From Spirochaetia bacterium (GTDB lineage Bacteria; Spirochaetota; Spirochaetia; WTKD01; G963693115), in NCBI GenBank assembly GCA_965218205.1, contig OZ244590.1:1176178-1240177 (forward strand): a DNA stretch of 64,000 nucleotides, read 5' to 3'. This document shows positions 4,758 to 62,873 of this stretch, piece after piece. The position numbers and the translations under genes were made by a program. Position 1 is the stretch's first letter; each line of letters opens with the position of its first letter. The notes under the pieces are model-generated. The model was given only the letters and a program-made list of their open reading frames with translations, was not told where the DNA came from and did no database searches.

Positions 4758-6044
4758 ATGCTTGTTTTGATTACTAAAGAAATCAATTTTATAGCCGATG
4801 CTAATGGTAGATTCATGCTTACAAAAAAAATAGCACAAATTGAAAGAAATAGCAGTATAGATTCTCTCGGATATTTAGATAAAGATTTTATTTTATTTCT
4901 TCCAGAAACACAGTTTAACAATACAATTAAGCAAATTTTTAATGAACATCAGATAGCAGCATATCAAACATATGAAACATCAGATATACATATCGCAACA
5001 AATAATTCAGAAGATGCACAAAAAAATACCCCTTCCCCCTCTTTTGTGCATACTACAAAAAAAGTAGATAGCAAATATGTACGGCTTCTCTCCTTATACC
5101 CAAACTATGAAATAAAATATGAAGAGCTGTATCATCAGATCAAGAATATTGTACATAATATCTCTCTATTACAAACAGTAGATTATAAAGAAATTACTAA
5201 TCTTATGTATGATAAAGTGTTACCGCTTATAAAAAAAGAACCTCTTGTATATTTAGCTGCCCATGAATTCTATGTTACAGAAAATCACATGCAATGTAAA
5301 CTTATTAACTTTTTTTTACAGAACCTACTTTTCACTACCTCATTGCTTGAACTTGATACAAGTAAAACATTTATCAGTATCGAAAAAAAGCTGCAAGTGA
5401 GTATATCCTCTATGCTAGCAAATGTAGGGCTTATTATTGTACTTAATACATTAGAAAAAGAAGAAGTAATAGGTATGCTGTTTACTCCTCAATTACGAAA
5501 AACAATCCCTAAACTGAGCAGTAAAATACTCAGTCATTCAATCTTTCCTCTTTCTCTCACACAAGGTATATTATACTCTAAAATACCATATGTTCATTTA
5601 CAGAAAATACAAAAAAGAAGTTCAGCATTAATCCATCCATCCAATTTGTATGAATTTTCTTTTATCATTAACTCGTATGTGTTTTTAGTAGGTGGCTACA
5701 ATAAAAAAAGGCATGCTCCTCCTCAAGCAATAAAAATCATTGCACAACAAGCAAACAAAGAGTTTAATCCTGACTTTATAAAAGTTATTGTCAATGTAAT
5801 CAGTACTATACCACCTGGTACCTATGTGTCGTTGGCTAATAAATCAAAGGGGATGATACTCTCTCCAAATATAGAATCTGAGAGCACCGCCTCCTTTCAG
5901 GTATTATCTACAAAACATGATAACACGGTAACTGATCTAAAGGTTATCACTGTTGATTCACAAGAGTTTAGTATAAGCAGCATTCTTTCTGAGGAAGAAA
6001 GTATGGCACTTCATAAGCATAGAAAATCTCTATATCAATACTAG
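4758..6044 (+). CDS. Hypothetical protein. C-terminal half resembles a degenerate HD-GYP-type domain (catalytic HD and GYP motifs not conserved)
   Basis: 428-aa ORF. The tail FNPDFIKVIVNVISTIPPGTYVSLANKSKGMIL resembles the conserved HD-GYP C-terminal segment. The candidate HD position reads LLELDTSK and the GYP position reads GGYNKKRH. Domain assignment is from memory and is weak. Confidence 0.5.
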   Translation: MLVLITKEINFIADANGRFMLTKKIAQIERNSSIDSLGYLDKDFILFLPETQFNNTIKQIFNEHQIAAYQTYETSDIHIATNNSEDAQKNTPSPSFVHTTKKVDSKYVRLLSLYPNYEIKYEELYHQIKNIVHNISLLQTVDYKEITNLMYDKVLPLIKKEPLVYLAAHEFYVTENHMQCKLINFFLQNLLFTTSLLELDTSKTFISIEKKLQVSISSMLANVGLIIVLNTLEKEEVIGMLFTPQLRKTIPKLSSKILSHSIFPLSLTQGILYSKIPYVHLQKIQKRSSALIHPSNLYEFSFIINSYVFLVGGYNKKRHAPPQAIKIIAQQANKEFNPDFIKVIVNVISTIPPGTYVSLANKSKGMILSPNIESESTASFQVLSTKHDNTVTDLKVITVDSQEFSISSILSEEESMALHKHRKSLYQY

Positions 6045-6066: not shown

Positions 6067-8454
6067 TCATTTTACTGTTTCCTTTTTGCTCAACTTTCTC
6101 TGTACTTGTATTTTTGTATGTATGTGCTTATTGGTAACTGTGAGTAAAATACTATGGAATACACGATGATGAGAAGTATTTTTATGTACTATTTTTCTTA
6201 GCACCGTATCTGTTAATATATCGTGTACCTCCTTTGCCATCATTCTCTTTACATTTCTTGCTCCAAAAATAGGAGAATAGCCTTTATTTGCTAAATATTC
6301 TACTACTGAATTATCCCAATGCAATGTTATATGGAGCTTTTTTAGTTTTACAGAAATGATATGTAATTCTCTTGTCACTATGTGTCGAATATGCTGTGTA
6401 TGTAATGTATTAAATGTAATGACTTCATCAAGTCTATTTCTAAATTCGGGGGTGAAAATATGTGAGGTTGCATCAAGCATAGCATTCTTTCCACGATAAT
6501 TTTCTCCTTCAAAACCAACCTCTGCTTGAATAGCATGTTCTGCTCCTGCATTTGAAGTCATGCACAATAGAATATTACGAAAATCTGCCTTTCTTCCCAT
6601 GCTATCAGTAATAGTAGCATAATCCATAATTTGCAGAAGAAGGTTATATACATCAGCGTGTGCTTTTTCAATCTCATCTAAAAGAAGTAAAGAATATGGA
6701 GAGCGTCTTATACAGTCTATCAGTACTCCCCCATTTGTATGTCCTACATACCCAGGAGGAGAACCAATAAATTTTGATACTGAGCTTTGCTCTTGAAACT
6801 CACTCATATCAAAACGATGAAATGTAATAGCAAGCTCAGATGCCACTTGTTTACATAATTCTGTTTTCCCTACTCCTGTTGGACCTACAAGCAAAAACGA
6901 AGCAAGCGGTTTATTCTCATCACTCAGTCCTGCTTTTGCACGATGTATTACATTAACGAAAGAATCGATAGCTTCGTCTTGTCCGAAAATAGTTTTTTTT
7001 AACTTTACTTTCAAATCTAAAAGCTCTTGTAGCTCATTTCTTTTAATGCTTGTCAATGATCGCTTTGTTATTTTACTCATGACTAATTCTACATCTTCTT
7101 TCTTTACGACTTTTATTTTTTCTGTATTATTGGTATGATTTTTAAGCTTAATGGATGAGCCTATAGCATCAAGAATATCAATAGCTTTGTCAGGAAACGC
7201 TCTATCTGTAACATACTTTTTACTCAGCTCTATAATATAATCAAACACTGTATGGGAATAACTCACTTTATAAAATGCTTCAAATGTATCCTTTAATTGT
7301 AATAAAATAGTTTTTACTTCTTTATTATTTGGCTCTTGCATCTCTACTACATGAAAGCGACGAAATATACTTTTTTCACGTTCTATGAGCTTTAGCTCTT
7401 CATATGTACAAGTACCTATACAGCGTATCTTATTATTTGCAAGCACAGGTTTTATAAGATCACCAAAATCGTTTCCGTTTCCTGTGCTAGAACCTGTGTT
7501 CATAGCACTATATATATCATCAAGCAATAGAATATACTGTTTTTCTTTTGAAAATGACTGCATGATCAATTTTACTCTCTCTTCAAAATCTCCTCTATAT
7601 CGAGTACCTGCTACTAATGCGGTAACATTAAGAGACAAAAGCTTTGTGTTACTGAGCTCATGAGGCACTGCATTTTTCTGTATAAGATGAGCAAATTCAT
7701 AGACCAATGATGTTTTTCCTACTCCAGCTTCACCCACTAAAAGAACATTATTTTTTTGTCTTCTTAATAAAACTTCTGTCACCTCGTTCAAGCAATCTAA
7801 TTGCCCTATAAAAGGTTCTAGCATATTTTTTTCTGCCAATGTATTTATATCAACTGTATATTTTTGTAAAGTGTTTTCATTTTTATGTTCATCATGCTCT
7901 TCATCTTCTTGAGAAGCAAAGAAAGAAATATCTTCATCTCCCTCAAGGGATGGTACAGAAAAATTAATTTTCTTATTCGTTTCTGTATTGGTATCATAAT
8001 TAAAAAAATCTTGAATAAAATCTTCGTCTTTCATTATTTCAAGAATATCTTCCTCTTTTATATTTTGATTTTTGAAAAATGAAATTTTTTGACTATCCTC
8101 TATTTGAATCAACGCAATAAGTAAATCTTTAATACCTAATATATCTCTTTGTTCGCTTGCACAAAATAGAAACGATTTTTCTATAAGCTGTCTGTATTCT
8201 AAAGAATATGCAATTCTAAACAAAGAGTTTTTTTTAGTAGCACTCACAGGAATATGAGAAAGATAGTCTATTAGCTCTCTTTTCATATCTTCAATACGAA
8301 TATTCATCATATCAAAGATTGCTCGAATTGCAGGCTGATAAAGAAGTACATACAGAACATGCTCAGGGGTAATTTTTTGATGTTGATAGTATATAGCTTC
8401 ATCACTTGCTGCATCTAAAATTAATTGAACATTTTCATCTAGTTTAAGTTTCAT
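6067..8454 (-). CDS. clpA: ATP-dependent Clp protease ATP-binding subunit ClpA-like (two AAA+ modules, no ClpB-type M domain)
   Basis: 795 aa. N-terminal Clp_N repeats. Walker A GEAGVGKT in D1 and GPTGVGKT in D2. Short D1-D2 linker as in ClpA. Confidence 0.88.
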   Translation of the reverse strand: MKLKLDENVQLILDAASDEAIYYQHQKITPEHVLYVLLYQPAIRAIFDMMNIRIEDMKRELIDYLSHIPVSATKKNSLFRIAYSLEYRQLIEKSFLFCASEQRDILGIKDLLIALIQIEDSQKISFFKNQNIKEEDILEIMKDEDFIQDFFNYDTNTETNKKINFSVPSLEGDEDISFFASQEDEEHDEHKNENTLQKYTVDINTLAEKNMLEPFIGQLDCLNEVTEVLLRRQKNNVLLVGEAGVGKTSLVYEFAHLIQKNAVPHELSNTKLLSLNVTALVAGTRYRGDFEERVKLIMQSFSKEKQYILLLDDIYSAMNTGSSTGNGNDFGDLIKPVLANNKIRCIGTCTYEELKLIEREKSIFRRFHVVEMQEPNNKEVKTILLQLKDTFEAFYKVSYSHTVFDYIIELSKKYVTDRAFPDKAIDILDAIGSSIKLKNHTNNTEKIKVVKKEDVELVMSKITKRSLTSIKRNELQELLDLKVKLKKTIFGQDEAIDSFVNVIHRAKAGLSDENKPLASFLLVGPTGVGKTELCKQVASELAITFHRFDMSEFQEQSSVSKFIGSPPGYVGHTNGGVLIDCIRRSPYSLLLLDEIEKAHADVYNLLLQIMDYATITDSMGRKADFRNILLCMTSNAGAEHAIQAEVGFEGENYRGKNAMLDATSHIFTPEFRNRLDEVITFNTLHTQHIRHIVTRELHIISVKLKKLHITLHWDNSVVEYLANKGYSPIFGARNVKRMMAKEVHDILTDTVLRKIVHKNTSHHRVFHSILLTVTNKHIHTKIQVQRKLSKKETVK

Positions 8455-8562
8455 ATATTAGTCTAGTATAGCAACATTATGTAAATAATGTCTTTCATTT
8501 TTGTAATGGTATACAAAAATATCCATAGTATCGATAAAAAAAATACATTGATGCATCTATGT

Positions 8563-8652
8563 CTTACGGACTAATTTTTTTTAACATTCCTGCTTCTAAA
8601 GTATATATTGAAGAGCAGGTATAATGGAGTACTTCTTCTAAATGAGAAATAA
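8563..8652. repeat. Direct repeat L (~90 bp) flanking the R-M cassette. A duplicated copy of the 3' end of the downstream ABC ATPase gene
   Basis: 8563-8652 matches 10766-10855 with 2 mismatches in 90 nt (cttacggactaattttttttaacattcctgcttctaaagtatatattgaagagca[g/t]gtataa[t/c]ggagtacttcttctaaatgagaaataa). On the minus strand it still encodes ...ISHLEEVLHYTCSSIYTLEAGMLKKISP* as an orphan gene tail. Confidence 0.9.
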
Positions 8653-8809
8653 TATATGTTTTTCTATAAAAATTCTTCCTGTTGTTATTTTAATATCTAT
8701 ATGCTTTTTCTTCATTATGGGTGTATTTTTCACTATACATTGTATTTTATGATAAATAAAAATATGATGTCTATAGATCTTATAGCTTTAGAGATATTAC
8801 AATTTGTAT

Positions 8810-9616
8810 TTAGAACATCAATACACTATTTTCTTCTTTATATTTTTTAATTCTATTTCTTGATAACTGACAATATTCTTTTGATATATCAATACCTATA
8901 TAATTTCTTCCTAATTTTAAAGCTGTAACACAAGTAGTTCCACTACCACACATTGGATCAAATACTAAATCGCCTTTATTAGTCCATGAATTGATATGAT
9001 CTCTTACTAATGCACAAGGAAAAGGAGCAGAATGCTTTTTTGCTTCCTGATCCTCAGCTTTTTTACCAACAACATAAGTCCATATATTACCTTTAATTTT
9101 TTGCTTTTGTACTGGATTAGCAAATTTTTCCCTCTTTTGTTCTCCTTTTGAGTAATTTTTATATGTAGTTCCATTTAACTGTAGACCTGCGTGTAAACAA
9201 TCTATTTTTATTGGATTATGAGTCTTAACAGTTCCTTTACTAAAAACAAACATATATTCAAACTCATTATTATATCTCTTTCTATATATCTGAGGGATTG
9301 GATTCTTTTTTTGAAATATCATTGTATCATGAAGATTAAAACCAATTTCTTTAAAATATAGTGCTTGCTTAAAACTACTTCCAGTTTCACTGCCAGCAAT
9401 TGTTGCATCTCCAACTACCCAAACTAAGATTCCTCCAATTTTAGTTATACGGAACAATTGTTTAGCTATTTTTTCAAATGGAAATGAATACCCTTTATAA
9501 GTACGTAAATTATCATAGGGAGGTGAAGTTATCGTTAAATCAACAAAATTGTCATCAAAAAATCCCATTAAATTAGTACAATTTCCTTCAATTATTTGAT
9601 TCAGATATTTTTGCAT
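8810..9616 (-). CDS. DNA methyltransferase, beta-class amino-MTase (motif IV SPPY precedes motif I FDPMCGSGTT). N4-cytosine or N6-adenine
   Basis: 268 aa. TSPPY at residues ~30-34 and FDPMCGSGTTCV near the C-terminus, the circular-permuted beta order. Start lies 1 nt after the upstream endonuclease stop. Confidence 0.85.
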   Translation of the reverse strand: MQKYLNQIIEGNCTNLMGFFDDNFVDLTITSPPYDNLRTYKGYSFPFEKIAKQLFRITKIGGILVWVVGDATIAGSETGSSFKQALYFKEIGFNLHDTMIFQKKNPIPQIYRKRYNNEFEYMFVFSKGTVKTHNPIKIDCLHAGLQLNGTTYKNYSKGEQKREKFANPVQKQKIKGNIWTYVVGKKAEDQEAKKHSAPFPCALVRDHINSWTNKGDLVFDPMCGSGTTCVTALKLGRNYIGIDISKEYCQLSRNRIKKYKEENSVLMF

Positions 9617-9617
9617 A

Positions 9618-10535
9618 TTATTTTATATTAAGTAGATCATTATTAGAGACATTATTAATTATTTTAATTTTATTTTCTATTCTACTTATATTGACTAGCT
9701 GCTTTAATGCTTCTTCATGACTTAGCTGCATAATCTTTTTTCTTTGTTCGCTTAGATATTTAAGAGCTTCTTGCTTAGCAATACTAATAGTATTTGATGC
9801 CATTATTTTTTCTTCTTGCCATAATTTAGCTATATTGCTTGAATAATTAAGAATAGTTTTATTTACCCCTAACCAATAGTCAACAGCATTTTTTGATGGA
9901 TTTAAAGCAGGGATAGTCTTAAATATTATATATAGCAACTCTTTTGATTTTTTTGCTCCAGATTCAAAGGCGAATCTTACTAATAAAGATAAATGAGAAT
10001 AGGTAAAAATACAAACATTTTTAGTTATTGCTTGCTCATAAATCTGGCTAGTTCTATTTGGCATTTGGTATATTGTACTCACTACCATAGCAAATGGTTT
10101 TCCATGTTTCCATCTATCCATAGATTGAATCTTAAAATCTTTTTGATTTTTAGCAGTTCTACTTAGCCTAAATGCTTTAGCATCAGCGACAAATTCAAAA
10201 TTATCTGTATAGCCTTCTACATCTGCAACATCTGCTCTCTCAGATAATACAAGACTTTTTATTCCCATCATTTTGTAGGCACTTGCTAATAAGCAATCTG
10301 TATATTTTGAATATAATTTCTCTTCAGTGGTATCATGCCCATAAGATTCTGGTATGTTGCCACAAAGATGTAAGTGTGCAATTAGAGCCTCCATACCTTT
10401 TTCATTAATTTCTGCATTTAATTCCCTTTCTAAAAATTCGGAGTTATCACTAAATGAACCTTTTAGATTTTCTATTTTTTTAATCCATTTTTCTCTAATA
10501 CTAATAATCTCGTTAATGTTTGATTTTACTGACAT
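9618..10535 (-). CDS. Type II restriction endonuclease, HindIII-like
   Basis: 305 aa. The segment FEFVADAKAFRLSRTAKNQKDFKIQSMDRWK closely matches the R.HindIII active-site region recalled from memory (…LVADAKSFRLSRTAKNQKDFKV…, catalytic D-x-K in VADAK). An upstream acidic residue lies in ADVEGYTDNFEF. Genetically coupled to the MTase. Confidence 0.78.
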   Translation of the reverse strand: MSVKSNINEIISIREKWIKKIENLKGSFSDNSEFLERELNAEINEKGMEALIAHLHLCGNIPESYGHDTTEEKLYSKYTDCLLASAYKMMGIKSLVLSERADVADVEGYTDNFEFVADAKAFRLSRTAKNQKDFKIQSMDRWKHGKPFAMVVSTIYQMPNRTSQIYEQAITKNVCIFTYSHLSLLVRFAFESGAKKSKELLYIIFKTIPALNPSKNAVDYWLGVNKTILNYSSNIAKLWQEEKIMASNTISIAKQEALKYLSEQRKKIMQLSHEEALKQLVNISRIENKIKIINNVSNNDLLNIK

Positions 10536-10765
10536 AATTTTTTAATTGAGTTGATAGATACCTTTAAAGTTCTATATCTTGTTTAATACTACAAATATGG
10601 TGAAAACATCCTATTTTTACAAAAAATAATTTTATAATTTTTAGCAAAATGGAAGTAAATTTATAATTTTCTAAAGTATCTTCTTTACTCATGTATAGTA
10701 TAATAGCATATTTATACATTATTGTTTTACTTACTACAATTAATTTACATATATTCTATCATCGC

Positions 10766-10855
10766 CTTACGGACTAATTTTTTTTAACATTCCTGCTTCT
10801 AAAGTATATATTGAAGAGCATGTATAACGGAGTACTTCTTCTAAATGAGAAATAA
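10766..10855. repeat. Direct repeat R (~90 bp). The native 3' end of the ABC ATPase gene
   Basis: See repeat L. This copy is continuous with CDS 10767..11648. Confidence 0.9.
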
Positions 10856-11648
10856 GCACTACTGAGCTTTTATAGCAAGAAAATAAATGGAGTACTATAT
10901 CGAGTATTTGTTTTCGTAGTCTGCTATCTAAAAAGCTTACTGGTTCATCTAATATGATAAGCTTTGGTTTTACAATAAATACCCGTACTAACGATAATCG
11001 TTGTAGTTCTCCTCCAGATACCTGATGAGGCAAACGGTGCAAAAGAGCATTGGATATTCCTACTTTTTGTAAAAGTTCAAATAACTCATGCTGAAACGTT
11101 TCTCGTAATGCTTTTTTACTTATTTCTGTTTTTGTTGTGTTGTTATCTGTATACATTGTTTCATAGTATGTCTTTTTATATGCAGTAAAAGTATCGTACA
11201 TACTTTGATATATGCTAAGACGGGGATTGAAACTTGCAAGGGGTTGCTGATATACCATTTGACATTGTAAATACATGCTTTTTTTATAATGAGAATAATG
11301 TTGCTTTTTATTCTTAAAATAAAAATTTCCTGATAAAGGAGAGATAGTGCCAGCTAGTAGCTTTGCAAGTGTAGACTTACCTGCTCCAGAATATCCTTGT
11401 ATGCCCACAAACTCATGATGAGATATATCAATAGATACATCATGTAATAGTAATGATTGCAGTAATGCACTTTGCTTCGTACTGTTAGTATTGCTATGAG
11501 TATTGTCTTTTTGTAGTATTGCATGTTTTAAGGCAGTATACTTTTTGGAAGAAGAAACAGTATGCCAAGAAAAATACACATGCTCAAATCTTATAAAAGA
11601 AAGAGAAGTATCATTTGTATATATACTGTTAATAGTACTATCTTTCAT
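10767..11648 (-). CDS. ABC transporter ATP-binding protein, peptide/nickel (OppF/DppF/NikE-like) family
   Basis: 293 aa. Walker A GYSGAGKST. The motif MVYQQPLASFNPRLSIYQ is characteristic of Opp/Dpp/Nik ATPases. ABC signature LSGGELQRLSL and Walker B LIILDEP are present. Confidence 0.85.
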   Translation of the reverse strand: MKDSTINSIYTNDTSLSFIRFEHVYFSWHTVSSSKKYTALKHAILQKDNTHSNTNSTKQSALLQSLLLHDVSIDISHHEFVGIQGYSGAGKSTLAKLLAGTISPLSGNFYFKNKKQHYSHYKKSMYLQCQMVYQQPLASFNPRLSIYQSMYDTFTAYKKTYYETMYTDNNTTKTEISKKALRETFQHELFELLQKVGISNALLHRLPHQVSGGELQRLSLVRVFIVKPKLIILDEPVSFLDSRLRKQILDIVLHLFSCYKSSVVLISHLEEVLRYTCSSIYTLEAGMLKKISP

Positions 11649-15662: not shown

Positions 15663-18600
15663 TTATGAAGTACATTCTGGATCATCTCTATCCTTTGGAA
15701 ACCAATCTGTTTTTTTTGCCATAGCTGAATTTTGGAAATCACCATTCTTTACTGATATTTTACAAATTTTCCACGAGGATAAATTTTGATTAAATTCAGA
15801 AGCGTTATAAAAGACAAAATTAAATCTTGTAACATTACCTACATTCCAACCTGATATATCCTTATCAAACTTACTTGCGTCTCTAAACATAAGATCCATA
15901 TTAGTAACCTTACGCGTATCCCAATCTCCTATATCTTTATTAAAAGCACGTGCTCTATTGAACATAGAACTCATATTAGTAACTTTGCTTACATCCCAAT
16001 CTCCTATATTTTTATTAAAAGCACTTTCTTGAAATAGAGCTTGCATATTCGTTACATTACTGGTATTCCACTGTGTTATATTTCCATTAAAAGTACTATC
16101 TTGATAAAATAAAGCATTCATATCAGTAATAGCACTGGTATCTATCATGTTGAGGTTGGGGCTAGGGTTGTTGTTACCTCCTGAACCTTGTCTTGTTTTT
16201 TCTGCAGTGATAATAGCTTGCAGTGCTGCTTTTGTTGTTGGTCTGTAATAGGTAGCTGATTGTCCTGCTAGTTTTACCAGCCCTGTCTCTACATTGATAG
16301 TCGCAAGTACCTTTTGTCCCGAGTTTGCTCCCGCAGAAGTAATGGTACACTCCACTACTCCATAGCTATACTCAGTTATAGCAGTATCATGTATGTTTGA
16401 TTTATTTGCTGTGCCTGCTATCGTTACTGTATTGGTATTTTTTGCAAATGTTACTGTTAAGCCTGTTTCTTGTTTGAGTGTGCTGTTATCTACTGTGCTT
16501 TCATCACAGGTAAATGATAGTCCACTAGGACTAATGCTGGTAAGTACTCTTGTTGTATGTGCTGATGTTGGTGCTGAGCCTACTGTTGCTGAAACTTTTG
16601 TAGCATTTCCTATCACTACTACTGGAGTGCTGGCAGAGACTGCTGTTGCTTCTGCTGATACCTTTGTCTTTTTGAGGCTGTTTACTGCTACTGCGGTGAT
16701 ATAGTACTTTGTATTCAATCGTAGGTTGCGTATTGTATAGCTTGTTGCTCCTGTTGGTACATCGTCTTTTTCTGCTCCTACTTGTGCATCGCTTGCTGCT
16801 TGTGCTTGTGTTTTTACTGTTGCTCCATTTATGCTTGTATTTGAGGCTATATAGTATACTTTGTAATCTATTTGATTATCTCTGAGAGTAGTTGTTCCGT
16901 CTTCTGTTGTTCCTTTCACGGTTGGGGCTGTTATGGTAAGTACTATGGTTGCTCCTTGTGCATTTGCTTGTATGGTGGGCTTTCCTGGTGCTCCATAGGC
17001 TTCTTTTGCGATAAACTCCTTGCGGACACCTCTTGATTCTTTGTTAGGATCGGTGCTGTTTACTGCTTGCACTACTATTTCGTAGCTTGTGCCTACTGTC
17101 ACACTGGTCAGAGTGCTGTTGGTTGTTCCTGCTGCTGTTGTTGTGGGGCTTCCTCCTGCTGCTATTATTATCTCTGCTATTGTCCTCTGTGAACTACCAT
17201 TTTTTGCTACTTTGTATACTTTGTACGATACTTGTGCTACTGCTAGGGTGTCTCCTGTGTCTGTTTTGTGGCTTGCAGTAAGGCTGGGGGCTGTCCACGA
17301 TAGCGTTGCATTCCTTCCTTCTACTCCTTTTACTTGTATGTTGCTTACTTCTGCGGGATCTGTTGCTTGTGATGCGGTTGTTACTGTTGCCACTGTCGAT
17401 ACTGCTTTTTTGCTTGGGTCTGTTTTTATGGCTACTTCTACTACAAAGTGATACTTTGTCGCTCCTTTTATTGCTACTGTTGGGGATGTCACGCCTAAAC
17501 TGCTAAGCGCTGGTACTGTGTACACTCCGTTCCTTGCACTGCCTATAGTTACTTTTCTGCCTTTTTGTACTTCTGCTACTGTTGGGGTTGTGTCTTTCTG
17601 TAAGCCGTACACTGTGTATACTAGCTCATCATTGCTGGTTACTGTTGTGCCGTCTTTGTTTTTTGCTCCTGTTATTGTGCTTAATTGTGTGAGTACTAGC
17701 TTTATTGTTCCTGTTGTGTTTGTTGATTGTGATACTACCAGCTTGTTTGCTAAGGACGAGGTAGGGGCTGTTGCTTTTGATCTGGGGATGGTGCTCAGTT
17801 CTAGTGTTTGTATCAGTGCTGGGTCCTTGCTTTGTGCTTTCTTTGTTGTAGAGGGGTTCAGGCTGTTTATTGCTTCTATGCCTATGGTGTATACTGCTCC
17901 TTTTGTTCCTATAAATGTTCCTCGTAAAGTGCTACTTCCTGCTATGTCTTGTGTTTGTACTCCTGTTATTGTTTTTATTTCGGCTATTGTTTTAGTACTC
18001 TGGTCTCCTGCTACTAGGTATACTTTGTACTGTATCTGTGCTTGTGTGAGTTTGCTGTCATTGGGTGCTTTGTGGTTGTCGGTAATTGTTCCTGCTTGAA
18101 ACTCGTACTGTACGGTATCGCTTGTTGCTGTTGATTCTGCAATAAGCAGAGTGAGGGTTTCTGGTGCGGGGGGGACAGTGGATATTGCATCATATACTGC
18201 TACTTTGTCAGTGAGTGTTGTTGGGGGGCTTACTCTGTTATTTTCTACTGTGAGAAAGCTAAAGCTATATTGTTTTGCATTGGCTTGTGTTGCTGATACT
18301 TCTATGCCATCTGCTATGCCAAAGCTAATGGTGGTAGCTATTCCTGTTATGCTTTTTTCTGCTATCAGTGTAGTGCTATCGTACATACGCAGGGTGTAGT
18401 ACTTATTTGATCCAGGTGCTTGCGTAAAGGTTGCTTTTATTTGTATTGCTCCTGTTGTTGTAACGAGGGCAGGCTTGCTTTGAAAGAGTTCTGCTGAGGG
18501 GGCTGTGAGTGGGGTGGGTGTTGTTATGTCTTGTGTTTTTGCATTGCTTTTGTTTTCTGCATAGTCTATTGCTTGTATTGTTACTGTGTATGTTTTGCCT

Positions 18601-20216
18601 TGACTGAGTGCTTCGACAGAGAGCGATGTTGTGGGATAGGGTATTTTTTTCTCGTTCAGTACTGTGGTAGTTGTGCCTTTCTCTTGTATGCTTATGCTGT
18701 ATTCTTTTATGTCTTTGTTCTTTGCTTTTGTTGCATCGGGTGCTGTCCATGTTATCTGTGTTGCTACTTTTGTTGCTGATACAAAGGGATAGCTTGCTTG
18801 TATGTTTGTTACTGGATCGGGATCGGTGCTATCTGCTCCTGTATCTACTGTTGCTGTTGCTTCTGTTCCTTTGTTGCCTGCACTGTCCATTGATACGACT
18901 GCCACTGTATACTCGGTGGTAGCTTTGAGGCCTGGTATCTGTGTGTTGCGTAGTGTTCTGTCTGTTATTGTTACTGTCTTTGCTGGAGTATCGCTCTCTT
19001 TCTCTGTTGCTGTTATAGTCACTCCTGCGTAGTCTCGTACATTGGGGGCTTGCCAGATGACTACTATGCTTGTTGCTCCTCCTACGGCACTTACATTGGT
19101 CGCGGGCTTTGTTGTTTTGTCGGTTGTTGCTTGTTCTTTTGACACTGCAGTGGAGTACTTTCCGTTTTGAGAGACATACACTTCTACTTTGTACGTAAGC
19201 GTGCCGTAGAGTTTTGTGAGTGCTATGCCATCTTTTGCGACATACACAGTGGCATATTCTTTTGTCTGTGCAGTTGCACTGCTGACATTGGTTGCACTGG
19301 TATCTTTGCTTATTGTCTCCTCTGCTACTATCGTCTGTGTTGCGGTTGCTGTTACTCGTACTAAGAGGCTTTTTGCTGTGTTGCCTGTTCCAAAGGCAAA
19401 GCTCCCCCACTTGATAAGCAGGCTTTCATCGGCAGGGCTATTGCTTTTATCGTTTGCTGTTACTGTAAGATTTGCCTCTGGTAGTGCTGCTACTGTTTGT
19501 GAGAGTGCTGATGCTTTTACGCCTGTCAGTACTGTTGTAGGACTGCTTGTGTTGTCATTTCTGTCTTTGTAGCGTATTTCTACATCATAGGATATGCCTG
19601 CAAGCGTAGAGATGTTTGGAAGCACAACCTCTCCTTGCTGTAGATTCTGCACGGTAGCTTGTGCAAGCACTGTGCCATCATTAGCCGTGCTTTTTACCAC
19701 TATTGTTGCTTCTGCTATGTCTGTCTTGCCTACTGCTAGTCGCTCTTTGTCCCATGTTATCTTTATGCCATCCCCCGACTTTTCTACTCCTACCTGTGTC
19801 AATGTGTCCTGTGGGGTAGTAGTATCTATCAGTGTTGTCACGGTGCGGGTTGTTTTTGGTGATACTTCTGTGTCCTTTTGGGCTTCAATCTCTACAGTGT
19901 AGTTAGTGAGTGCTTGCAAGCCTTTGAGTTTGTACGATTGTCCTTGTTGAAAGAGTGTTTGATATTCTATGGCAGGAACACGCACTTGTATTGATTGGGC
20001 TGGTGCGGTAGAGGTAGCGTTTACGACTACATGCGTGGCATCGCTTGGGGCTTGCCAGCGTAAAGCAAGCGTCCCATCATTGCCTGCTGGCTGTATCTGC
20101 ACATTGGACAGTGATGCAAGGGTCGGGGTTACCTGTTTCCCTCCCCCTCCGCCTGATGAGGAACTGCTACTGCCCTCCGAACATGCTACGAGTACGAGGG
20201 TAGTTATTGCTAGCAC
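15663..20216 (-). CDS. Giant surface lipoprotein, paralog 1. Multiple FN3/Ig-like repeats plus C-terminal DUF285 (BspA/mycoplasma-type) repeats. Body as called from GTG 20216; the true initiation is probably the ATG at 20314, currently out of frame (see the poly-G feature)
   Basis: 1517 aa. Lipobox LVAC, then a Ser/Gly linker. Repeated FN3-like endings (YTVTIQAIDYAENKS, EYTVAVVSMDSAGNKG). The C-terminal tandem motif ...MFxxAxxFNxDIGxWDVSxVTNM is typical of DUF285. The called GTG start leaves only 11 residues before the lipobox Cys, with no charged n-region. Confidence 0.85.
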   Translation of the reverse strand: MLAITTLVLVACSEGSSSSSSGGGGGKQVTPTLASLSNVQIQPAGNDGTLALRWQAPSDATHVVVNATSTAPAQSIQVRVPAIEYQTLFQQGQSYKLKGLQALTNYTVEIEAQKDTEVSPKTTRTVTTLIDTTTPQDTLTQVGVEKSGDGIKITWDKERLAVGKTDIAEATIVVKSTANDGTVLAQATVQNLQQGEVVLPNISTLAGISYDVEIRYKDRNDNTSSPTTVLTGVKASALSQTVAALPEANLTVTANDKSNSPADESLLIKWGSFAFGTGNTAKSLLVRVTATATQTIVAEETISKDTSATNVSSATAQTKEYATVYVAKDGIALTKLYGTLTYKVEVYVSQNGKYSTAVSKEQATTDKTTKPATNVSAVGGATSIVVIWQAPNVRDYAGVTITATEKESDTPAKTVTITDRTLRNTQIPGLKATTEYTVAVVSMDSAGNKGTEATATVDTGADSTDPDPVTNIQASYPFVSATKVATQITWTAPDATKAKNKDIKEYSISIQEKGTTTTVLNEKKIPYPTTSLSVEALSQGKTYTVTIQAIDYAENKSNAKTQDITTPTPLTAPSAELFQSKPALVTTTGAIQIKATFTQAPGSNKYYTLRMYDSTTLIAEKSITGIATTISFGIADGIEVSATQANAKQYSFSFLTVENNRVSPPTTLTDKVAVYDAISTVPPAPETLTLLIAESTATSDTVQYEFQAGTITDNHKAPNDSKLTQAQIQYKVYLVAGDQSTKTIAEIKTITGVQTQDIAGSSTLRGTFIGTKGAVYTIGIEAINSLNPSTTKKAQSKDPALIQTLELSTIPRSKATAPTSSLANKLVVSQSTNTTGTIKLVLTQLSTITGAKNKDGTTVTSNDELVYTVYGLQKDTTPTVAEVQKGRKVTIGSARNGVYTVPALSSLGVTSPTVAIKGATKYHFVVEVAIKTDPSKKAVSTVATVTTASQATDPAEVSNIQVKGVEGRNATLSWTAPSLTASHKTDTGDTLAVAQVSYKVYKVAKNGSSQRTIAEIIIAAGGSPTTTAAGTTNSTLTSVTVGTSYEIVVQAVNSTDPNKESRGVRKEFIAKEAYGAPGKPTIQANAQGATIVLTITAPTVKGTTEDGTTTLRDNQIDYKVYYIASNTSINGATVKTQAQAASDAQVGAEKDDVPTGATSYTIRNLRLNTKYYITAVAVNSLKKTKVSAEATAVSASTPVVVIGNATKVSATVGSAPTSAHTTRVLTSISPSGLSFTCDESTVDNSTLKQETGLTVTFAKNTNTVTIAGTANKSNIHDTAITEYSYGVVECTITSAGANSGQKVLATINVETGLVKLAGQSATYYRPTTKAALQAIITAEKTRQGSGGNNNPSPNLNMIDTSAITDMNALFYQDSTFNGNITQWNTSNVTNMQALFQESAFNKNIGDWDVSKVTNMSSMFNRARAFNKDIGDWDTRKVTNMDLMFRDASKFDKDISGWNVGNVTRFNFVFYNASEFNQNLSSWKICKISVKNGDFQNSAMAKKTDWFPKDRDDPECTS

Positions 20217-58313: not shown

Positions 58314-61300
58314 CTATGATGAAGGACATGCTGTTTTATCAGTACTGTCCTTTGGGTACTGTGATGTTTTTCCATACATAGCTGAACCAGAAAAAGTACT
58401 TAAAATTATTGTTGCTTTACATAATCTCCACGATGATAAATCTTGATCAAATTTACGAGCATTTTTAAATGTATGGTATACATTAGTAACACTCTGTACA
58501 TCCCAATCTCCTATGTCTTGATTAAAAGCAGAAGCTCTATTGAACATACTATTCATACCAATAACCTTACTCATATCCCAATCTCCTATATCTTGATTAA
58601 AAGCAGAAGCTAAAGTAAACATATTAACCACATTAGTAACCTTACCTACATCCCAATTTCCTATATCTTGATTAAAGACAGTAGCAGAATCAAACATAGC
58701 ACCCATATCCGTTACATTACTGGTATTCCATTTTGTAATATCTCCATTAAATGTACTATCATTAAAAAATAAATCACTCATATCAGTAATAGCACTGGTG
58801 TCTATCATGTTGAGGTTGGGGCTAGGGTTGTTGTTCCCTCCCGAACCTTGCCTTGTTTTTTCTGCAGTGATAATAGCTTGCAATGCTGACTTTGTTGTTG
58901 GTCTGTAATAGCTCGCTGATTGTCCTGCTAGTTTCACCAGCCCTGTCTCTACATTGATAGTCGCAAGTACCTTTTGTCCCGAGTTTGCTCCCGCAGTAAT
59001 GGTACATTCCACTACTCCATAGCTATATTCAGTTATAGCAGTATCATGTATGTTTGATTTATTTGCTGTGCCTGTTATCGTTACTGTATTGGTATTTTTT
59101 GCAAATGTTACTGTTAGGCCTGTTTCTTGTTTGAGGGTGCTGTTATCGTTATCTATTGTGCTTTCATCACAGGTAAAGGTAAGCCCACTAGGACTAATGC
59201 TGGTAAGTACTCTCGTTGTATGTGCTGATGTTGGTGTTGATCCTACTGTTGCTGAAACCTTTGTGGCATTTCCTATTACTACTGTTGGGGTGCTGGCAGA
59301 GACTGCTGTTGCTTCTGCTGATATTTTTGTCTTTTTGAGGCTGTTTACTGCTACTGCGGTGATATAGTACTTTGTATTCAATCGTAGGTTGCGTATTGTA
59401 TAGCTTGTTGCTCCTGTTGGCACATCGTCTTTTTCTGCTCCTACTTGTGCATCGCTTGCTGCTTGTGCCCGTGTTTTTATTGTTGCTCCATTTATGTTTG
59501 TATTTGAGGCTATATAGTATACTTTGTAGTCTATTTGATTATCTCTGAGATGAGTTGTTCCGTCTTCTGCTGTTCCTTTTACGGTTGGGGCTGTTATGGT
59601 AAGTACTATGGTAGCTCCTTGTGCATTTGCTTGTATGGTGGGCTTTCCTGGTGCTGCATAGGCTTCTTTTGCTACAAACTCCTTGCGGATACCTGTTGAT
59701 TCTTTGTTGGGATCGGTGCTGTTTACTGCTTGCACTACTATTTCGTAGCTTGTGCCTACTGTCACACTGGTCAGAGTGCTGTTGGTTGTTCCTGCTGCTG
59801 TTGTTGTGGGGCTTCCTCCTGATGCTATTATTATCTCTGCTATTGTCCTCTGTGTACTGCCACTTTTTGCTACTTTGTATACTTTGTACGATACTTGTGC
59901 TACTGCTAGGGTATCGCCTGTGTCTGTTGTGTGGCTTGCAGTAAGGCTGGGGGCTGTCCACGATAGCTTTGCATTCCTTCCTTCTACTCCTTTTACTTGT
60001 ATGTTGCTTACTTCTGCGGGATCTGTTGCTAGTGATGCGGTTGTTACTGTTGCCACTGTCGATACTGCTTTTTTGCTTGGATCTGTTTTTATGGCTACTT
60101 CTACTACAAAGTGATACTTTGTTGCTCCTTTTATTGCTACTGCTGAGGATGTCACGCCTATACTGCTAAGGGCTGGTACTGTGTACACTCCGTTCCTTGC
60201 TGTGCCTATGCTTACTCTTCTGCCTCTTTGTACTTCTGCTACTGTTGGGGTTGTGTCTTTTTGTAAGCCGTACACTGTGTACACTAGCTCATCATTGCTG
60301 GTTACTGTTGTGCCATCTTTGTTTTTTGCTCCTGTTATTGTGCTTAATTGCGTGAGTACTAGCTTTATTGTTCCTGTTGTGTTTGTTGACTGTGATACTA
60401 CTAGCTTGCCTGTTAAGGACGAGTTAGGGGCTGTTGCTTTTGATCTGGGGATGGTGCTGAGTGCTAGTGTTTGTATCAGTGCGGGGTCTTTGCTTTGTGC
60501 TTTCTTTGTTGTAAAGGGGTTCAGGTTGTTTATTGCTTCTATGCCTATGGTGTATTCTGCTCCTTTTGTTCCTATAAATGTTCCTCGTAAAGTGCTGTTT
60601 CCTGCTATATCTTGTATTTGTACTCCTGTCATTGCTTTTATTTCTGCTATTGTTTTAGTACTCTGGTCTCCTGCTACTATGTATACTTTGTACTGTATGT
60701 TTGCTTGTGTGAGTTTGCTGTCATTGGGTGCTTTGTGGTTGTCGGTAATTGTTCCTGCTTGAAACTCGTACTGTACGGTATCGCTTGTTGCTGTTGATTC
60801 TGCAATAAGCAGAGTGAGGCTTTCTGGTGCGGGAGGGACAGTGGATATTGCATCGTATACTGCTACTTTGTCTGTGAGTGTTGTTGGGGGGCTTACTCTG
60901 TTATTTTCTACTGTGAGAAAGCGAAAGCTATATTGTTTTGCATTTGCTTGTGTTGCTGATACTTCTATGCCATCTGCTATGCCAAAGCTAATGGTGGTTG
61001 CGGTACTTGTTATGCTTTTTTCTGCTACCAGTGTAGTGCTATCGTACATACGCAGGGTGTAGTACTTATTTGATCCAGGTGCTTGCGTAAAGGTTGCTTT
61101 TATTTGTATTGCTCCTGTTGTAACGAGGGCGGGCTTGCTTTGAAAGAGTTCTGCTGAGGGTGCTGTAAGCTGAGAGGGAGTGGTTATGTCTTTTGGGGTT
61201 GATGTGCTTTTGTTGCCTGCATAGTCTATTGCTTGTATTGTTACTGTGTATGTTTTTCCTTGACTGAGTTCTTCGACAGAGAGCGATGTTGTGGGATAGG

Positions 61301-62873
61301 CTATTTTCTGCTCGTTCAGTACTGCAGTACTTGTGCCTTGCTCTTGTATGCTTATGCTGTATTCTTTTATGTCTTTGTTCTTGGCTTTTGTTGCATCGGG
61401 GGCTGTCCATGTTATCTGTGTTGCTACTTTTGTTGCTGATACAAAGGGATAGCTTGCTTGTATGTTTGTTACTGGATCGGGTGCTGTGCTATCTGCTCCT
61501 GTATCTACTGTGGTTGTTGCTTCTGTTCCTTTGTTGCCTGCATAGTCCATTGATACGACTGCCACTGTGTACTCGGTGGTGGCTTTGAGGCCTGGTATCT
61601 GCGTGTTGCGTACTGTTCTGTCTGTTATTGTTACTGTCTTTGCTGCTGTTGGGCTATCTTTTTCTGTTGCTGTTATGGTCACTCCTGCGTAGTCTCGTAC
61701 ATTGGGCTCTTGCCAGCTTACTACTATGCTTGTTGCTCCTCCTACGGCACTTACATTGCTTACGGGCTTTGTTGTTTTGTCGGTTGTTGCTAATTCTTTT
61801 GACACTGCAGTGGAGTACTTTCCGTTTTGAGAGACATACACTTCTACTTTGTAGCTAAGTGTACCGTAGAGTTTTGTGAGTGCTATGCCATCTTTTGCGA
61901 CATACACAGTGGCGTATTCTTTGTTTTGTGCGGTTGCTCCGCTGACATTGGTTGCACTTGTATCTTTGCTTATTGTCTCCTCTGCTACTACTGTGTTTGT
62001 TGCGGTTGCTGTTACTCGTACTAAGAGGCTTTTTGCTGTACTGCCTGTTCCAAAGGTAAAGTTTCCCCACTTGATAAGCAGGCTTTCATCGGCAGGGCTA
62101 TTGTCTTTATCGTTTGCTGTTACTGTAAGTTCTGCCTCTGGTAGTGGCGTTACTGTTTGTGAGAGTGCTGATGCTTGCACACCAGTCAGTACTGTTGTAG
62201 GACTGCTTGTGTTGTCATTTCTGTCTTTGTAGCGTATTTCTACATCATAGGATATGCCTGCAAGCGTGGAGATGTTTGGAAGCGTAACTTCCCCTTGTTG
62301 TAGGTTCTGTACGGTAGCTTGTGCAAGCACTGTGCCACCAGTTGTGCTTTTTACCACTATCGTTGCTTCTGCTATGTCTGTCTTGCCTACTGCAAGTCGT
62401 TCTTTGTCCCATGTTATCTTTATGCCATCACCTGATTTTTCTACGCCTACTTGTGTCAATGTGTCTTGTGGGGTAGTAGTATCTATCAGTGTTGTCACAG
62501 TGCGGGTTGTTTTTGGTGATACTTCCGTGTTTTTCTGGGCTTCTATCTCTACAGTGTAGTTAGTAAGTGCTTGTAAGCCTTTGAGTTTATACGATTGTCC
62601 TTGTTGAAACAATGCACGATATTCTATGGCAGGAACACGCACTTGTATTGATTGGGCTGGCGTTGTAGATGTAGCTTTTACTACTACATGTGTGGCATCA
62701 CTGGGAGCTTGCCAGCGTAATGAGAGTGTCCCATCATTGCCTGCTGGTTGTATCTGCACATTGGACAGTGATGCAAGTGTCGGGGTTACTGGTGAAGTTC
62801 CTCCTCCGCCTGATGAGGAACTGCTACTGCCCTCCGAACATCCTACGAGTACGAGGGTAACTATTGCTAGCAC
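58314..62873 (-). CDS. Giant surface lipoprotein, paralog 3 (near-identical to paralog 1 over ~4.2 kb, with a different C-terminal DUF285 cassette). Body as called from GTG 62873. The probable true start ATG 62967 is out of frame across a G14 tract
   Basis: 1519 aa. Lipobox LVGC. FN3-like repeats identical in order to paralog 1. The C-terminus carries one more DUF285 unit and a distinct tail (...KDSTDKTACPSS). Confidence 0.85.
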   Translation of the reverse strand: MLAIVTLVLVGCSEGSSSSSSGGGGTSPVTPTLASLSNVQIQPAGNDGTLSLRWQAPSDATHVVVKATSTTPAQSIQVRVPAIEYRALFQQGQSYKLKGLQALTNYTVEIEAQKNTEVSPKTTRTVTTLIDTTTPQDTLTQVGVEKSGDGIKITWDKERLAVGKTDIAEATIVVKSTTGGTVLAQATVQNLQQGEVTLPNISTLAGISYDVEIRYKDRNDNTSSPTTVLTGVQASALSQTVTPLPEAELTVTANDKDNSPADESLLIKWGNFTFGTGSTAKSLLVRVTATATNTVVAEETISKDTSATNVSGATAQNKEYATVYVAKDGIALTKLYGTLSYKVEVYVSQNGKYSTAVSKELATTDKTTKPVSNVSAVGGATSIVVSWQEPNVRDYAGVTITATEKDSPTAAKTVTITDRTVRNTQIPGLKATTEYTVAVVSMDYAGNKGTEATTTVDTGADSTAPDPVTNIQASYPFVSATKVATQITWTAPDATKAKNKDIKEYSISIQEQGTSTAVLNEQKIAYPTTSLSVEELSQGKTYTVTIQAIDYAGNKSTSTPKDITTPSQLTAPSAELFQSKPALVTTGAIQIKATFTQAPGSNKYYTLRMYDSTTLVAEKSITSTATTISFGIADGIEVSATQANAKQYSFRFLTVENNRVSPPTTLTDKVAVYDAISTVPPAPESLTLLIAESTATSDTVQYEFQAGTITDNHKAPNDSKLTQANIQYKVYIVAGDQSTKTIAEIKAMTGVQIQDIAGNSTLRGTFIGTKGAEYTIGIEAINNLNPFTTKKAQSKDPALIQTLALSTIPRSKATAPNSSLTGKLVVSQSTNTTGTIKLVLTQLSTITGAKNKDGTTVTSNDELVYTVYGLQKDTTPTVAEVQRGRRVSIGTARNGVYTVPALSSIGVTSSAVAIKGATKYHFVVEVAIKTDPSKKAVSTVATVTTASLATDPAEVSNIQVKGVEGRNAKLSWTAPSLTASHTTDTGDTLAVAQVSYKVYKVAKSGSTQRTIAEIIIASGGSPTTTAAGTTNSTLTSVTVGTSYEIVVQAVNSTDPNKESTGIRKEFVAKEAYAAPGKPTIQANAQGATIVLTITAPTVKGTAEDGTTHLRDNQIDYKVYYIASNTNINGATIKTRAQAASDAQVGAEKDDVPTGATSYTIRNLRLNTKYYITAVAVNSLKKTKISAEATAVSASTPTVVIGNATKVSATVGSTPTSAHTTRVLTSISPSGLTFTCDESTIDNDNSTLKQETGLTVTFAKNTNTVTITGTANKSNIHDTAITEYSYGVVECTITAGANSGQKVLATINVETGLVKLAGQSASYYRPTTKSALQAIITAEKTRQGSGGNNNPSPNLNMIDTSAITDMSDLFFNDSTFNGDITKWNTSNVTDMGAMFDSATVFNQDIGNWDVGKVTNVVNMFTLASAFNQDIGDWDMSKVIGMNSMFNRASAFNQDIGDWDVQSVTNVYHTFKNARKFDQDLSSWRLCKATIILSTFSGSAMYGKTSQYPKDSTDKTACPSS

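Follow-up and report, generated by a model that had tools for sequence, protein, structure and literature searches.

A HindIII-family restriction-modification unit bracketed by a 90-bp repeat of an ABC ATPase gene end in a spirochete

Gene content of the locus and its direct repeat

The DNA analysed here is a 64-kb window of contig OZ244590.1 from a Spirochaetia bacterium, and the subject is a restriction-modification (R-M) unit of two genes, a HindIII-family endonuclease and a beta-class methyltransferase, lying between the gene of an ATP-binding cassette (ABC) transporter ATPase and clpA. All genes at the R-M locus are encoded on the minus strand, and in the direction of the genes the order is ABC ATPase, a 230-bp spacer, endonuclease, methyltransferase, 157 bp, a second copy of the ABC ATPase gene end, a non-coding stretch of 108 bp and clpA (Table 1). 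The best NCBIfam match of the ABC ATPase is NikE (E=1e-37) and ClpA matches TIGR02639 (E=4e-225), each under the cut-off of the respective model.

A repeat finder returns 8563–8652 and 10766–10855 as a 90-nucleotide (nt) direct repeat with 88 of 90 positions identical, exactly the coordinates and the two differences that the original prediction had read from the letters. At up to 3 mismatches, two copies are present in the whole window and none in 100 shuffles, and the repeat boundaries are abrupt, similarity stopping past either end. The copies are about 2.2 kb apart, with 2113 bp (8653–10765) between them. The copy at 10766–10855 comprises the final 28 codons of the ABC ATPase open reading frame (ORF), together with its stop and one more nucleotide. 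The copy at 8563–8652 encodes the same 28 residues with a single R-to-H replacement, followed by the stop; an in-frame stop precedes it and it lacks a start codon, which makes it an orphan fragment, in agreement with the earlier description of this copy.

The bracketed segment (8653–10765) has a GC content of 27.0%, in contrast to 35.8% for the whole window, which places it in the lowest 0.2% of segments of the same size. The GC content at third codon positions (GC3) is also lower, 0.15–0.19 in the endonuclease and methyltransferase genes versus 0.20–0.25 in their neighbours, and the unit is indeed richer in AT than its surroundings, as had been claimed. The descriptive part of the original prediction is correct throughout. 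An Rfam search of 8300–11000 gave no match, a terminator scan of the locus found none, and the promoter-like sites there are not above chance. A controller (C) protein encoded in the spacer was considered and rejected: there is no credible ORF, the 51-aa ORF at 10564–10719 being of low complexity, with two single-base indels in its region relative to the sister genome described below.

Table 1. Features of the R-M locus, listed in the direction of the genes
Feature	Coordinates	Strand	Basis or remark
ABC transporter ATPase (NikE/OppF-like, 293 aa), intact	10767..11648	-	PF00005 E=1e-25
Repeat copy 1, functional 3' end of the ABC ATPase gene	10766..10855	.	repeat search, translation
AT-rich non-coding spacer (~20% GC), copy 1 to endonuclease start	10536..10765	-	collinear in sister genome
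HindIII-family type IIP endonuclease, 305 aa, apparently intact	9618..10535	-	PF09518, 2E52, PADLOC
Beta-class amino-methyltransferase, 268 aa	8810..9616	-	PF01555 and motifs
AT-rich non-coding 157 bp, methyltransferase stop to repeat copy 2	8653..8809	-	no sister counterpart
Repeat copy 2, orphan ABC ATPase tail; one non-synonymous (R to H) and one synonymous difference from copy 1	8563..8652	.	
49 bp, repeat copy 2 to conserved clpA leader; not alignable with sister genome	8514..8562	-	
Conserved clpA upstream region; sister homology resumes here	8455..8513	-	promoter-like site 8494 to 8465
clpA, 795 aa, right-hand chromosomal flank	6067..8454	-	TIGR02639, PF07724, PF00004, PF02861

The endonuclease, the methyltransferase and AAGCTT sites

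The endonuclease matches PF09518 (RE_HindIII) over profile positions 2–284 of 285 (E=5e-103, 344.7 bits against a cut-off of 25.3), aligns over its full length with the HindIII crystal-structure sequence 2E52 (E=2e-31) and is recognised by the PADLOC REase_II model (E=5e-85). In a residue-for-residue alignment with 2E52, the catalytic segment VADAK...FRLSRTAKNQKDFK (VADAK...QKDFK) is kept, and the PD-(D/E)XK residues of the window endonuclease are D118, D133 and K135, which we take to be the counterparts of the HindIII catalytic residues D108, D123 and K125. The full-length family match and the catalytic motif shared with 2E52 bear out the assignment of this protein to the HindIII family. Its sequence is 66–67% identical to a large set of Bacteroidota and marine-metagenome proteins, and 51% identical, over about 90% of the length, to enzymes on small EcoVIII-type plasmids of E. 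coli and Klebsiella; metagenomes apart, no annotated group of endonucleases is nearer.

The most likely predicted target of the endonuclease is AAGCTT, for which the evidence is indirect. In the window, this hexamer occurs at 10 sites, as compared with 39 expected from dinucleotide shuffles and 30–43 from Markov models of order 1, 2 and 4, an approximately four-fold depletion that makes it the second most depleted 6-bp palindrome; none of the sites is within the R-M unit. The depletion fits a long exposure of the lineage to AAGCTT-specific restriction. Both the depletion and the presence of the unit in a second genome (see below) accord with the earlier remark that the insertion is not very recent.

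Two AAGCTT sites of the ABC ATPase gene, at 10933–10938 and 10959–10964, are spaced by 26 bp and lie 78–109 bp from the repeat boundary, and the second of them reads AAACTT in the sister genome. With 10 sites in 64 kb, such a pair beside the unit would not be expected, and it was noticed post hoc. The most depleted palindrome of the window is TTTAAA (8 sites versus 32–69 expected), and GTTAAC (0 sites, 2–18 expected) and AGATCT (3 sites, 7–23 expected) are likewise rare, which suggests restriction pressures besides that of the HindIII-like system.

The endonuclease stop and the methyltransferase ATG are 1 nt apart (TAA-T-ATG). The methyltransferase matches PF01555 (E=1e-47, 163 bits against a cut-off of 26.7) and carries SPPY at residue 31, HSAPFP at 195 and DPMCGSGTT at 220; since SPPY is N-terminal of DPMCGSGTT, the motif order is that of the beta class. 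The PF01555 match, the motif order and the 1-nt distance sustain the description of the endonuclease as tightly linked to a beta-class SPPY methyltransferase. Its nearest relatives are from Flavobacteriia (78–81% identity).

The chemistry of modification deserves the caution with which it was originally treated. M.HindIII, M.EcoVIII and M.LlaCI are described as N6-adenine beta-class enzymes (PMC5974420), and motif IV of HindIII-like systems is DIPY (PMC12294265). The partner methyltransferase of a plasmid-borne HindIII-family endonuclease (locus L085), a protein of 305 aa, carries DIPY and HPTQKP, and only 68 C-terminal residues of the window enzyme align with it, at 40% identity. By these sequence comparisons, the window methyltransferase is not orthologous to the M.HindIII/M.EcoVIII N6-adenine group. 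TSPPY and KH(S/P)APFP are found in the window enzyme and also in N4CMT (8S9M) and TTHA0409, and SPPY is common to most bacterial N4-cytosine methyltransferases, DPPY to N6-adenine enzymes (PMC8885841). Because its TSPPY and KH(S/P)APFP are those of N4CMT and not DIPY and HPTQKP, we lean modestly towards N4-methylcytosine (m4C) rather than N6-methyladenine (m6A) as the probable product. A literature search for an AAGCTT m4C methylome found only m6A or undetermined assignments. M.BstZ1II was considered as a possible m4C precedent and dropped, being aligned with the N6-adenine beta-class enzymes (PMC5974420).

A sister genome and the arrival of the unit

Relatives of the locus were sought in 185,579 species genomes, in the JGI metagenomes and in a collection of 5.8 billion proteins, and 107 loci were fetched. 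Exact-protein look-ups of the ABC ATPase and ClpA returned nothing. Among the 5.8 billion proteins, homologues of the ABC ATPase are limited to one close sequence (92%) and one distant contig (58%); the ClpA scan of the species genomes gave one relative (97%), with all other matches at or below 40% identity, and all matches of the ABC ATPase in the JGI metagenomes are at or below 33% identity. The host lineage is very sparsely sampled. Its sole close relative is a Spirochaetia metagenome-assembled genome (MAG; contig CBDDCA010000003.1, locus L001), hereafter the sister genome. Two further cluster members, P0186 and P0189, were discarded as short, unrelated fragments.

The distant contig (L002) carries a permease, ABC2 (frameshifted) and ABC1, followed directly by gltX, an ABC order that is the reverse of the one in the window. 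In a comparison of L002 3586–6356 with window 13304–10767, the block of clpA, the 428-aa ORF and an aminotransferase is not at that position. Being without clpA there, L002 is not an empty site either, and its gene order marks the ABC2/clpA boundary as a rearrangement point in the clade. Polarising the repeat differences with L002 failed, as it is too diverged and the last 33 nt of the gene tail are not alignable.

The flanks of the unit are collinear between window and sister genome, at a divergence of about 4–5%, and the sister carries the unit at the same left junction, consisting of ABC stop, spacer and endonuclease. The sister endonuclease gene (L001 11116–11748, corresponding to window 10535–9618) has a D133Y substitution in the catalytic QKDFK and a 266-bp frameshifting deletion (window 9905–9640 missing) that truncates the product to 210 aa; these lesions inactivate the enzyme. 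Its methyltransferase is intact and 99% identical to that of the window, and the sister R-M unit is, as its sequence reads, decaying into an orphan methyltransferase. The sister also bears on the reading of the repeat as an assembly or consensus artefact, a concern raised by a source that appears to be a MAG: a separate assembly, that of the sister MAG, yielded the left half of the structure as well, and the two copies differ at 2 positions and stand 2.2 kb apart in unique, fully coding sequence, making an artefact barely credible.

The age of the unit was examined by comparing synonymous divergence (pS) between window and sister, with five genes and clpA as flanks. The methyltransferase gene has a pS of 0.026 and the 5' part of the endonuclease gene one of 0.036, as against 0.09–0.16 for the flanking genes. 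Pooled, 8.5 synonymous changes at 282 sites in the R-M genes compare with 194 at 1528 in the flanks (Fisher p=8e-8, computed on 8/282), i.e., divergence in the R-M genes is lower by a factor of about four (pS 0.03 versus 0.127). The maximum-likelihood segment of low divergence spans 10516–8353, with 0.94% inside and 4.3% outside (logLR 29.7; permutation maximum 8.1), and as pS reaches about 0.096 in the nearest parts of the flanks (final 250 bp of the ABC gene, initial 450 bp of clpA), the young block coincides with the unit itself. The common ancestor of the R-M genes is thus younger than that of the flanks, and the unit has a history of its own.

The two repeat copies tell a similar age. Repeat copy 1, copy 2 and the sister gene tail each have one private change. 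With one copy taken as coding and the other as neutral, 2 differences in 90 bp give the repeat, by calculation, roughly one quarter of the age of the lineage split, which agrees with the ratio 0.03/0.127, whereas a duplication that predates the split would predict about 8 differences in 90 bp. As a separate observation, the ABC ATPase has the highest non-synonymous divergence nearby (pN 0.036 versus 0.009–0.020), and its changes cluster in the first ~60 codons, an N-terminal extension outside the Pfam ABC domain.

The account that we prefer, with about an even chance of being right, is that the R-M unit integrated adjoining the ABC gene and that the last 90 bp of the gene were duplicated in the process, which would leave the ABC gene intact and place an orphan 90-bp copy on the far side of the unit. 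Two routes would give the same structure: insertion accompanied by long target duplication, or homology-anchored single-crossover integration of R-M DNA that came in with those 90 bp. The latter would also account for a left junction that is shared with the sister together with a repeat that is present in the window genome only. The integration would have happened within a species-level population, after the two sampled lineages had split, with no recombinase gene involved, and the sister's unit is decaying to an orphan methyltransferase. Under this duplication model, the 49 bp at 8514–8562 would be the DNA that originally followed the ABC gene.

R-M insertions with long target duplication have been defined in a survey by R and M genes that both lie inside the insert, an insert shorter than 20 kb, a repeat longer than 30 bp and, as the decisive point, a comparison genome that is free of the insert and has one repeat copy at the empty site (Furuta 2010, PMC2853133). 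Here, both genes lie between the repeats, the insert is 2113 bp and the repeat 90 bp. With regard to the survey's further demand that mobility genes be absent and the repeat not multicopy, no mobility gene is found among the neighbours of the unit or, over about 10 kb, on the sister contig, and the repeat has two copies in 64 kb.

The same facts bear on site-specific integration of a larger integrative element, in which the 90-bp repeats would be att sites and the integrase part would since have been lost. A homologous cassette does adjoin a large serine recombinase in one Bacteroidota context, and long att repeats are known from such integrations (PMC2853133). However, neither an integrase nor a transposase is encoded near the unit in the window, the annotated sister contig has none over about 10 kb, and the 64-kb window is free of tRNA genes; furthermore, only two genes lie between the repeats, and what is repeated is the end of a gene for a protein rather than of a tRNA. 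We regard this reading as very improbable.

Several observations weigh against a single clean integration with duplication. An empty site, in which clpA would adjoin the ABC gene with one copy of the repeat, was found neither in the 185,579 species genomes nor in the JGI metagenomes nor among the 5.8 billion proteins. The sister genome has one repeat copy and no second. On its right side, 185 bp of unrelated DNA stand in place of the window's 157 bp, repeat and 49 bp (296 bp in all), homology between the two genomes breaking exactly at the methyltransferase stop and resuming about 58 bp upstream of clpA. The differing right junctions call for at least one extra, unexplained event, and the sister's single copy and unrelated right-hand DNA, taken with the young R-M genes, imply a history of more than one clean insertion; the right junction leaves room for a sister state that may be ancestral and a duplication that came later for unrelated reasons. 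The ends of the unit are not definable from its Bacteroidota relatives, with which no flank similarity is shared. Finally, the spacer (10536–10766) differs from that of the sister by 11 substitutions and 2 indels in 231 bp; this intermediate divergence of 4.8%, compatible with the young block (p=0.35) and below the flank synonymous divergence (p=2e-4), makes the spacer's membership in the mobile unit uncertain. The R-M content, the size, the length of the repeat and the lack of mobility genes agree with the insertion with long target duplication put forward in the original prediction, whereas a duplication at the time of insertion is not established.

The sister locus lends itself to a different history, the main rival, possible though tentative, in which the duplication is secondary: the unit was in the common ancestor without a target duplication, the sister form is the ancestral one, and later, in the window lineage only, illegitimate recombination or repair at the locus replaced the DNA downstream of the methyltransferase by a block that happens to include a copy of the ABC tail. 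Such a history would account for a sister that has the unit with a single repeat copy and for a left junction identical in both genomes, and the 4.8% divergence of the spacer is compatible with old residence. The locus is prone to rearrangement, ABC1 and ABC2 being swapped and the clpA block not being there in the distant relative, and R-M units have been linked to nearby rearrangements (PMC2853133). On the other hand, the repeat brackets the unit exactly and its age matches that of the young R-M genes; moreover, the sister locus is decaying (266-bp deletion, D133Y), so that secondary loss there is plausible, and no source was found for the 157-bp or 49-bp blocks. Searched by blastn and tblastx against the Bacteroidota loci, the plasmid loci, the window and the 107 fetched loci, the spacer (231 bp), the tail (157 bp), the 49-bp block and the 185-bp sister block all gave nothing.

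If, conversely, the repeat-flanked form were ancestral to both genomes, the sister would have lost copy 2 by deletion and replacement, and the low divergence of the R-M genes would stem from later homologous exchange. The shared left junction and the decay at the sister locus agree with this, as does a weak match of 16 in 18 positions between the sister block and the junction of insert and repeat copy 2, TATATTATTTCT(C/T)AT(T/G)TA. However, shuffled controls do about as well (maximum score 25, versus 26 for the match), and both local and global alignments of the two right junctions, examined for hidden homology, were likewise no better than shuffled controls. The 2 differences seen in place of the ~8 expected have a calculated Poisson P of ~0.01, and an exchange should have carried the right junction too, yet pS is ~0.096 right beside the unit. 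We consider this history quite unlikely.

A bolder proposal, unlikely as we judge it, is that the unit is a recombinase-free, autonomously mobile element that entered, or re-entered, the same site separately in the two sister lineages, the 90-bp duplication being intact in one of them, and that it would represent a large uncharacterised branch that joins HindIII-type endonucleases to m4C methyltransferases. Separate entries would leave a block that is young relative to either flank and whose right end differs between the genomes.

Elsewhere in the window, a 428-aa ORF (4758–6044, plus strand) is encoded on the strand opposite to both of its neighbours and has no Pfam or PADLOC match; it is kept in the sister MAG, with 418 aa in the gene call there. 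Two paralogous ORFs of ~1518 aa (15663–20216 and 58314–62873, both minus strand), 88% identical and 38 kb apart, begin with a lipoprotein-like N-terminus, and within each there is a 193-aa antisense ORF with a GTG start. The sister-contig orthologue of the ORF at 15663–20216 has fn3 and DUF285 Pfam matches.

Comparison with known systems

Long duplications on either side of R-M units belong to the small number of indications that such units move without transposases or integrases, and, to our knowledge, the mechanism of their movement has never been demonstrated. An R-M insertion with long target duplication was reportedly described in Helicobacter pylori by Nobusato et al. in 2000. The phenomenon, the endonuclease family and the methyltransferase class are thus already known. 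New here is, firstly, an example from an uncultured spirochete, a phylum not named in the excerpted text of the 2010 survey (PMC2853133); secondly, a unit demonstrably younger than the chromosome that flanks it, with the decay of the same unit in a sister genome as an internal control; and thirdly, the partnership of this HindIII-family branch with an N4-cytosine-type methyltransferase, a pairing widespread in Bacteroidota. If empty, excised or tandem forms turn up, the step of movement could be studied at this locus.

The 2010 survey reports R-M insertions with long target duplication from Helicobacter, Haemophilus, Campylobacter, Neisseria, Microcystis and others (Furuta 2010, PMC2853133). 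The window unit resembles them in having complete R and M genes in ~2 kb, no mobility gene, repeats far longer than the target duplications of transposons (90 bp here, 46–423 bp in the published cases), a repeat overlapping a flanking gene at its 3' end, and an insert with a GC content below that of the genome. It differs from them in that the published cases are defined by an empty single-copy site in a comparison genome, whereas the relative here has the unit, one repeat copy and another right junction; the host phylum, Spirochaetota, is also outside those listed in the excerpted text.

With HindIII of Haemophilus influenzae Rd (2E52, 3A4K), the window endonuclease shares the Pfam family, a full-length alignment and the segment VADAK...SRTAKNQKDFK, and probably also the AAGCTT specificity. 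The relationship is distant (E=2e-31), and the window methyltransferase belongs to a different beta-class subgroup from M.HindIII. The EcoVIII-type systems on ColE1-like plasmids of E. coli and Klebsiella come nearer in their endonuclease, at the 51% identity given above, yet they have convergent genes (L085), a DIPY/HPTQKP methyltransferase and a plasmid location.

By sequence, the closest relatives of the window unit are cassettes of Bacteroidota. In nine Bacteroidota loci (L087–L095), the endonuclease gene is followed by the methyltransferase gene with stop and start a few bases apart, arguing that the pair is a widespread, conserved two-gene cassette. These cassettes, with proteins from Mesonia, Paludibacter, Flavobacterium psychrophilum and a Flavobacteriaceae MAG, have the gene order of the window unit and its SPPY/HxAPFP/DPMxGSGTT motifs, whereas their contexts contain serine recombinase or M78-peptidase/DUF4411 genes, their nucleotide identity to the unit is ~73% and no non-coding flanks are shared. 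From these comparisons, the ancestry of the unit looks foreign to a spirochete. Lastly, the methyltransferase has the TSPPY motif IV of N4-cytosine beta-class enzymes (N4CMT, 8S9M/8S9N; M.PvuII) and, as in N4CMT, KH(S/P)APFP before motif I, although its similarity to N4CMT is limited to the C-terminal 100 residues and motif IV.

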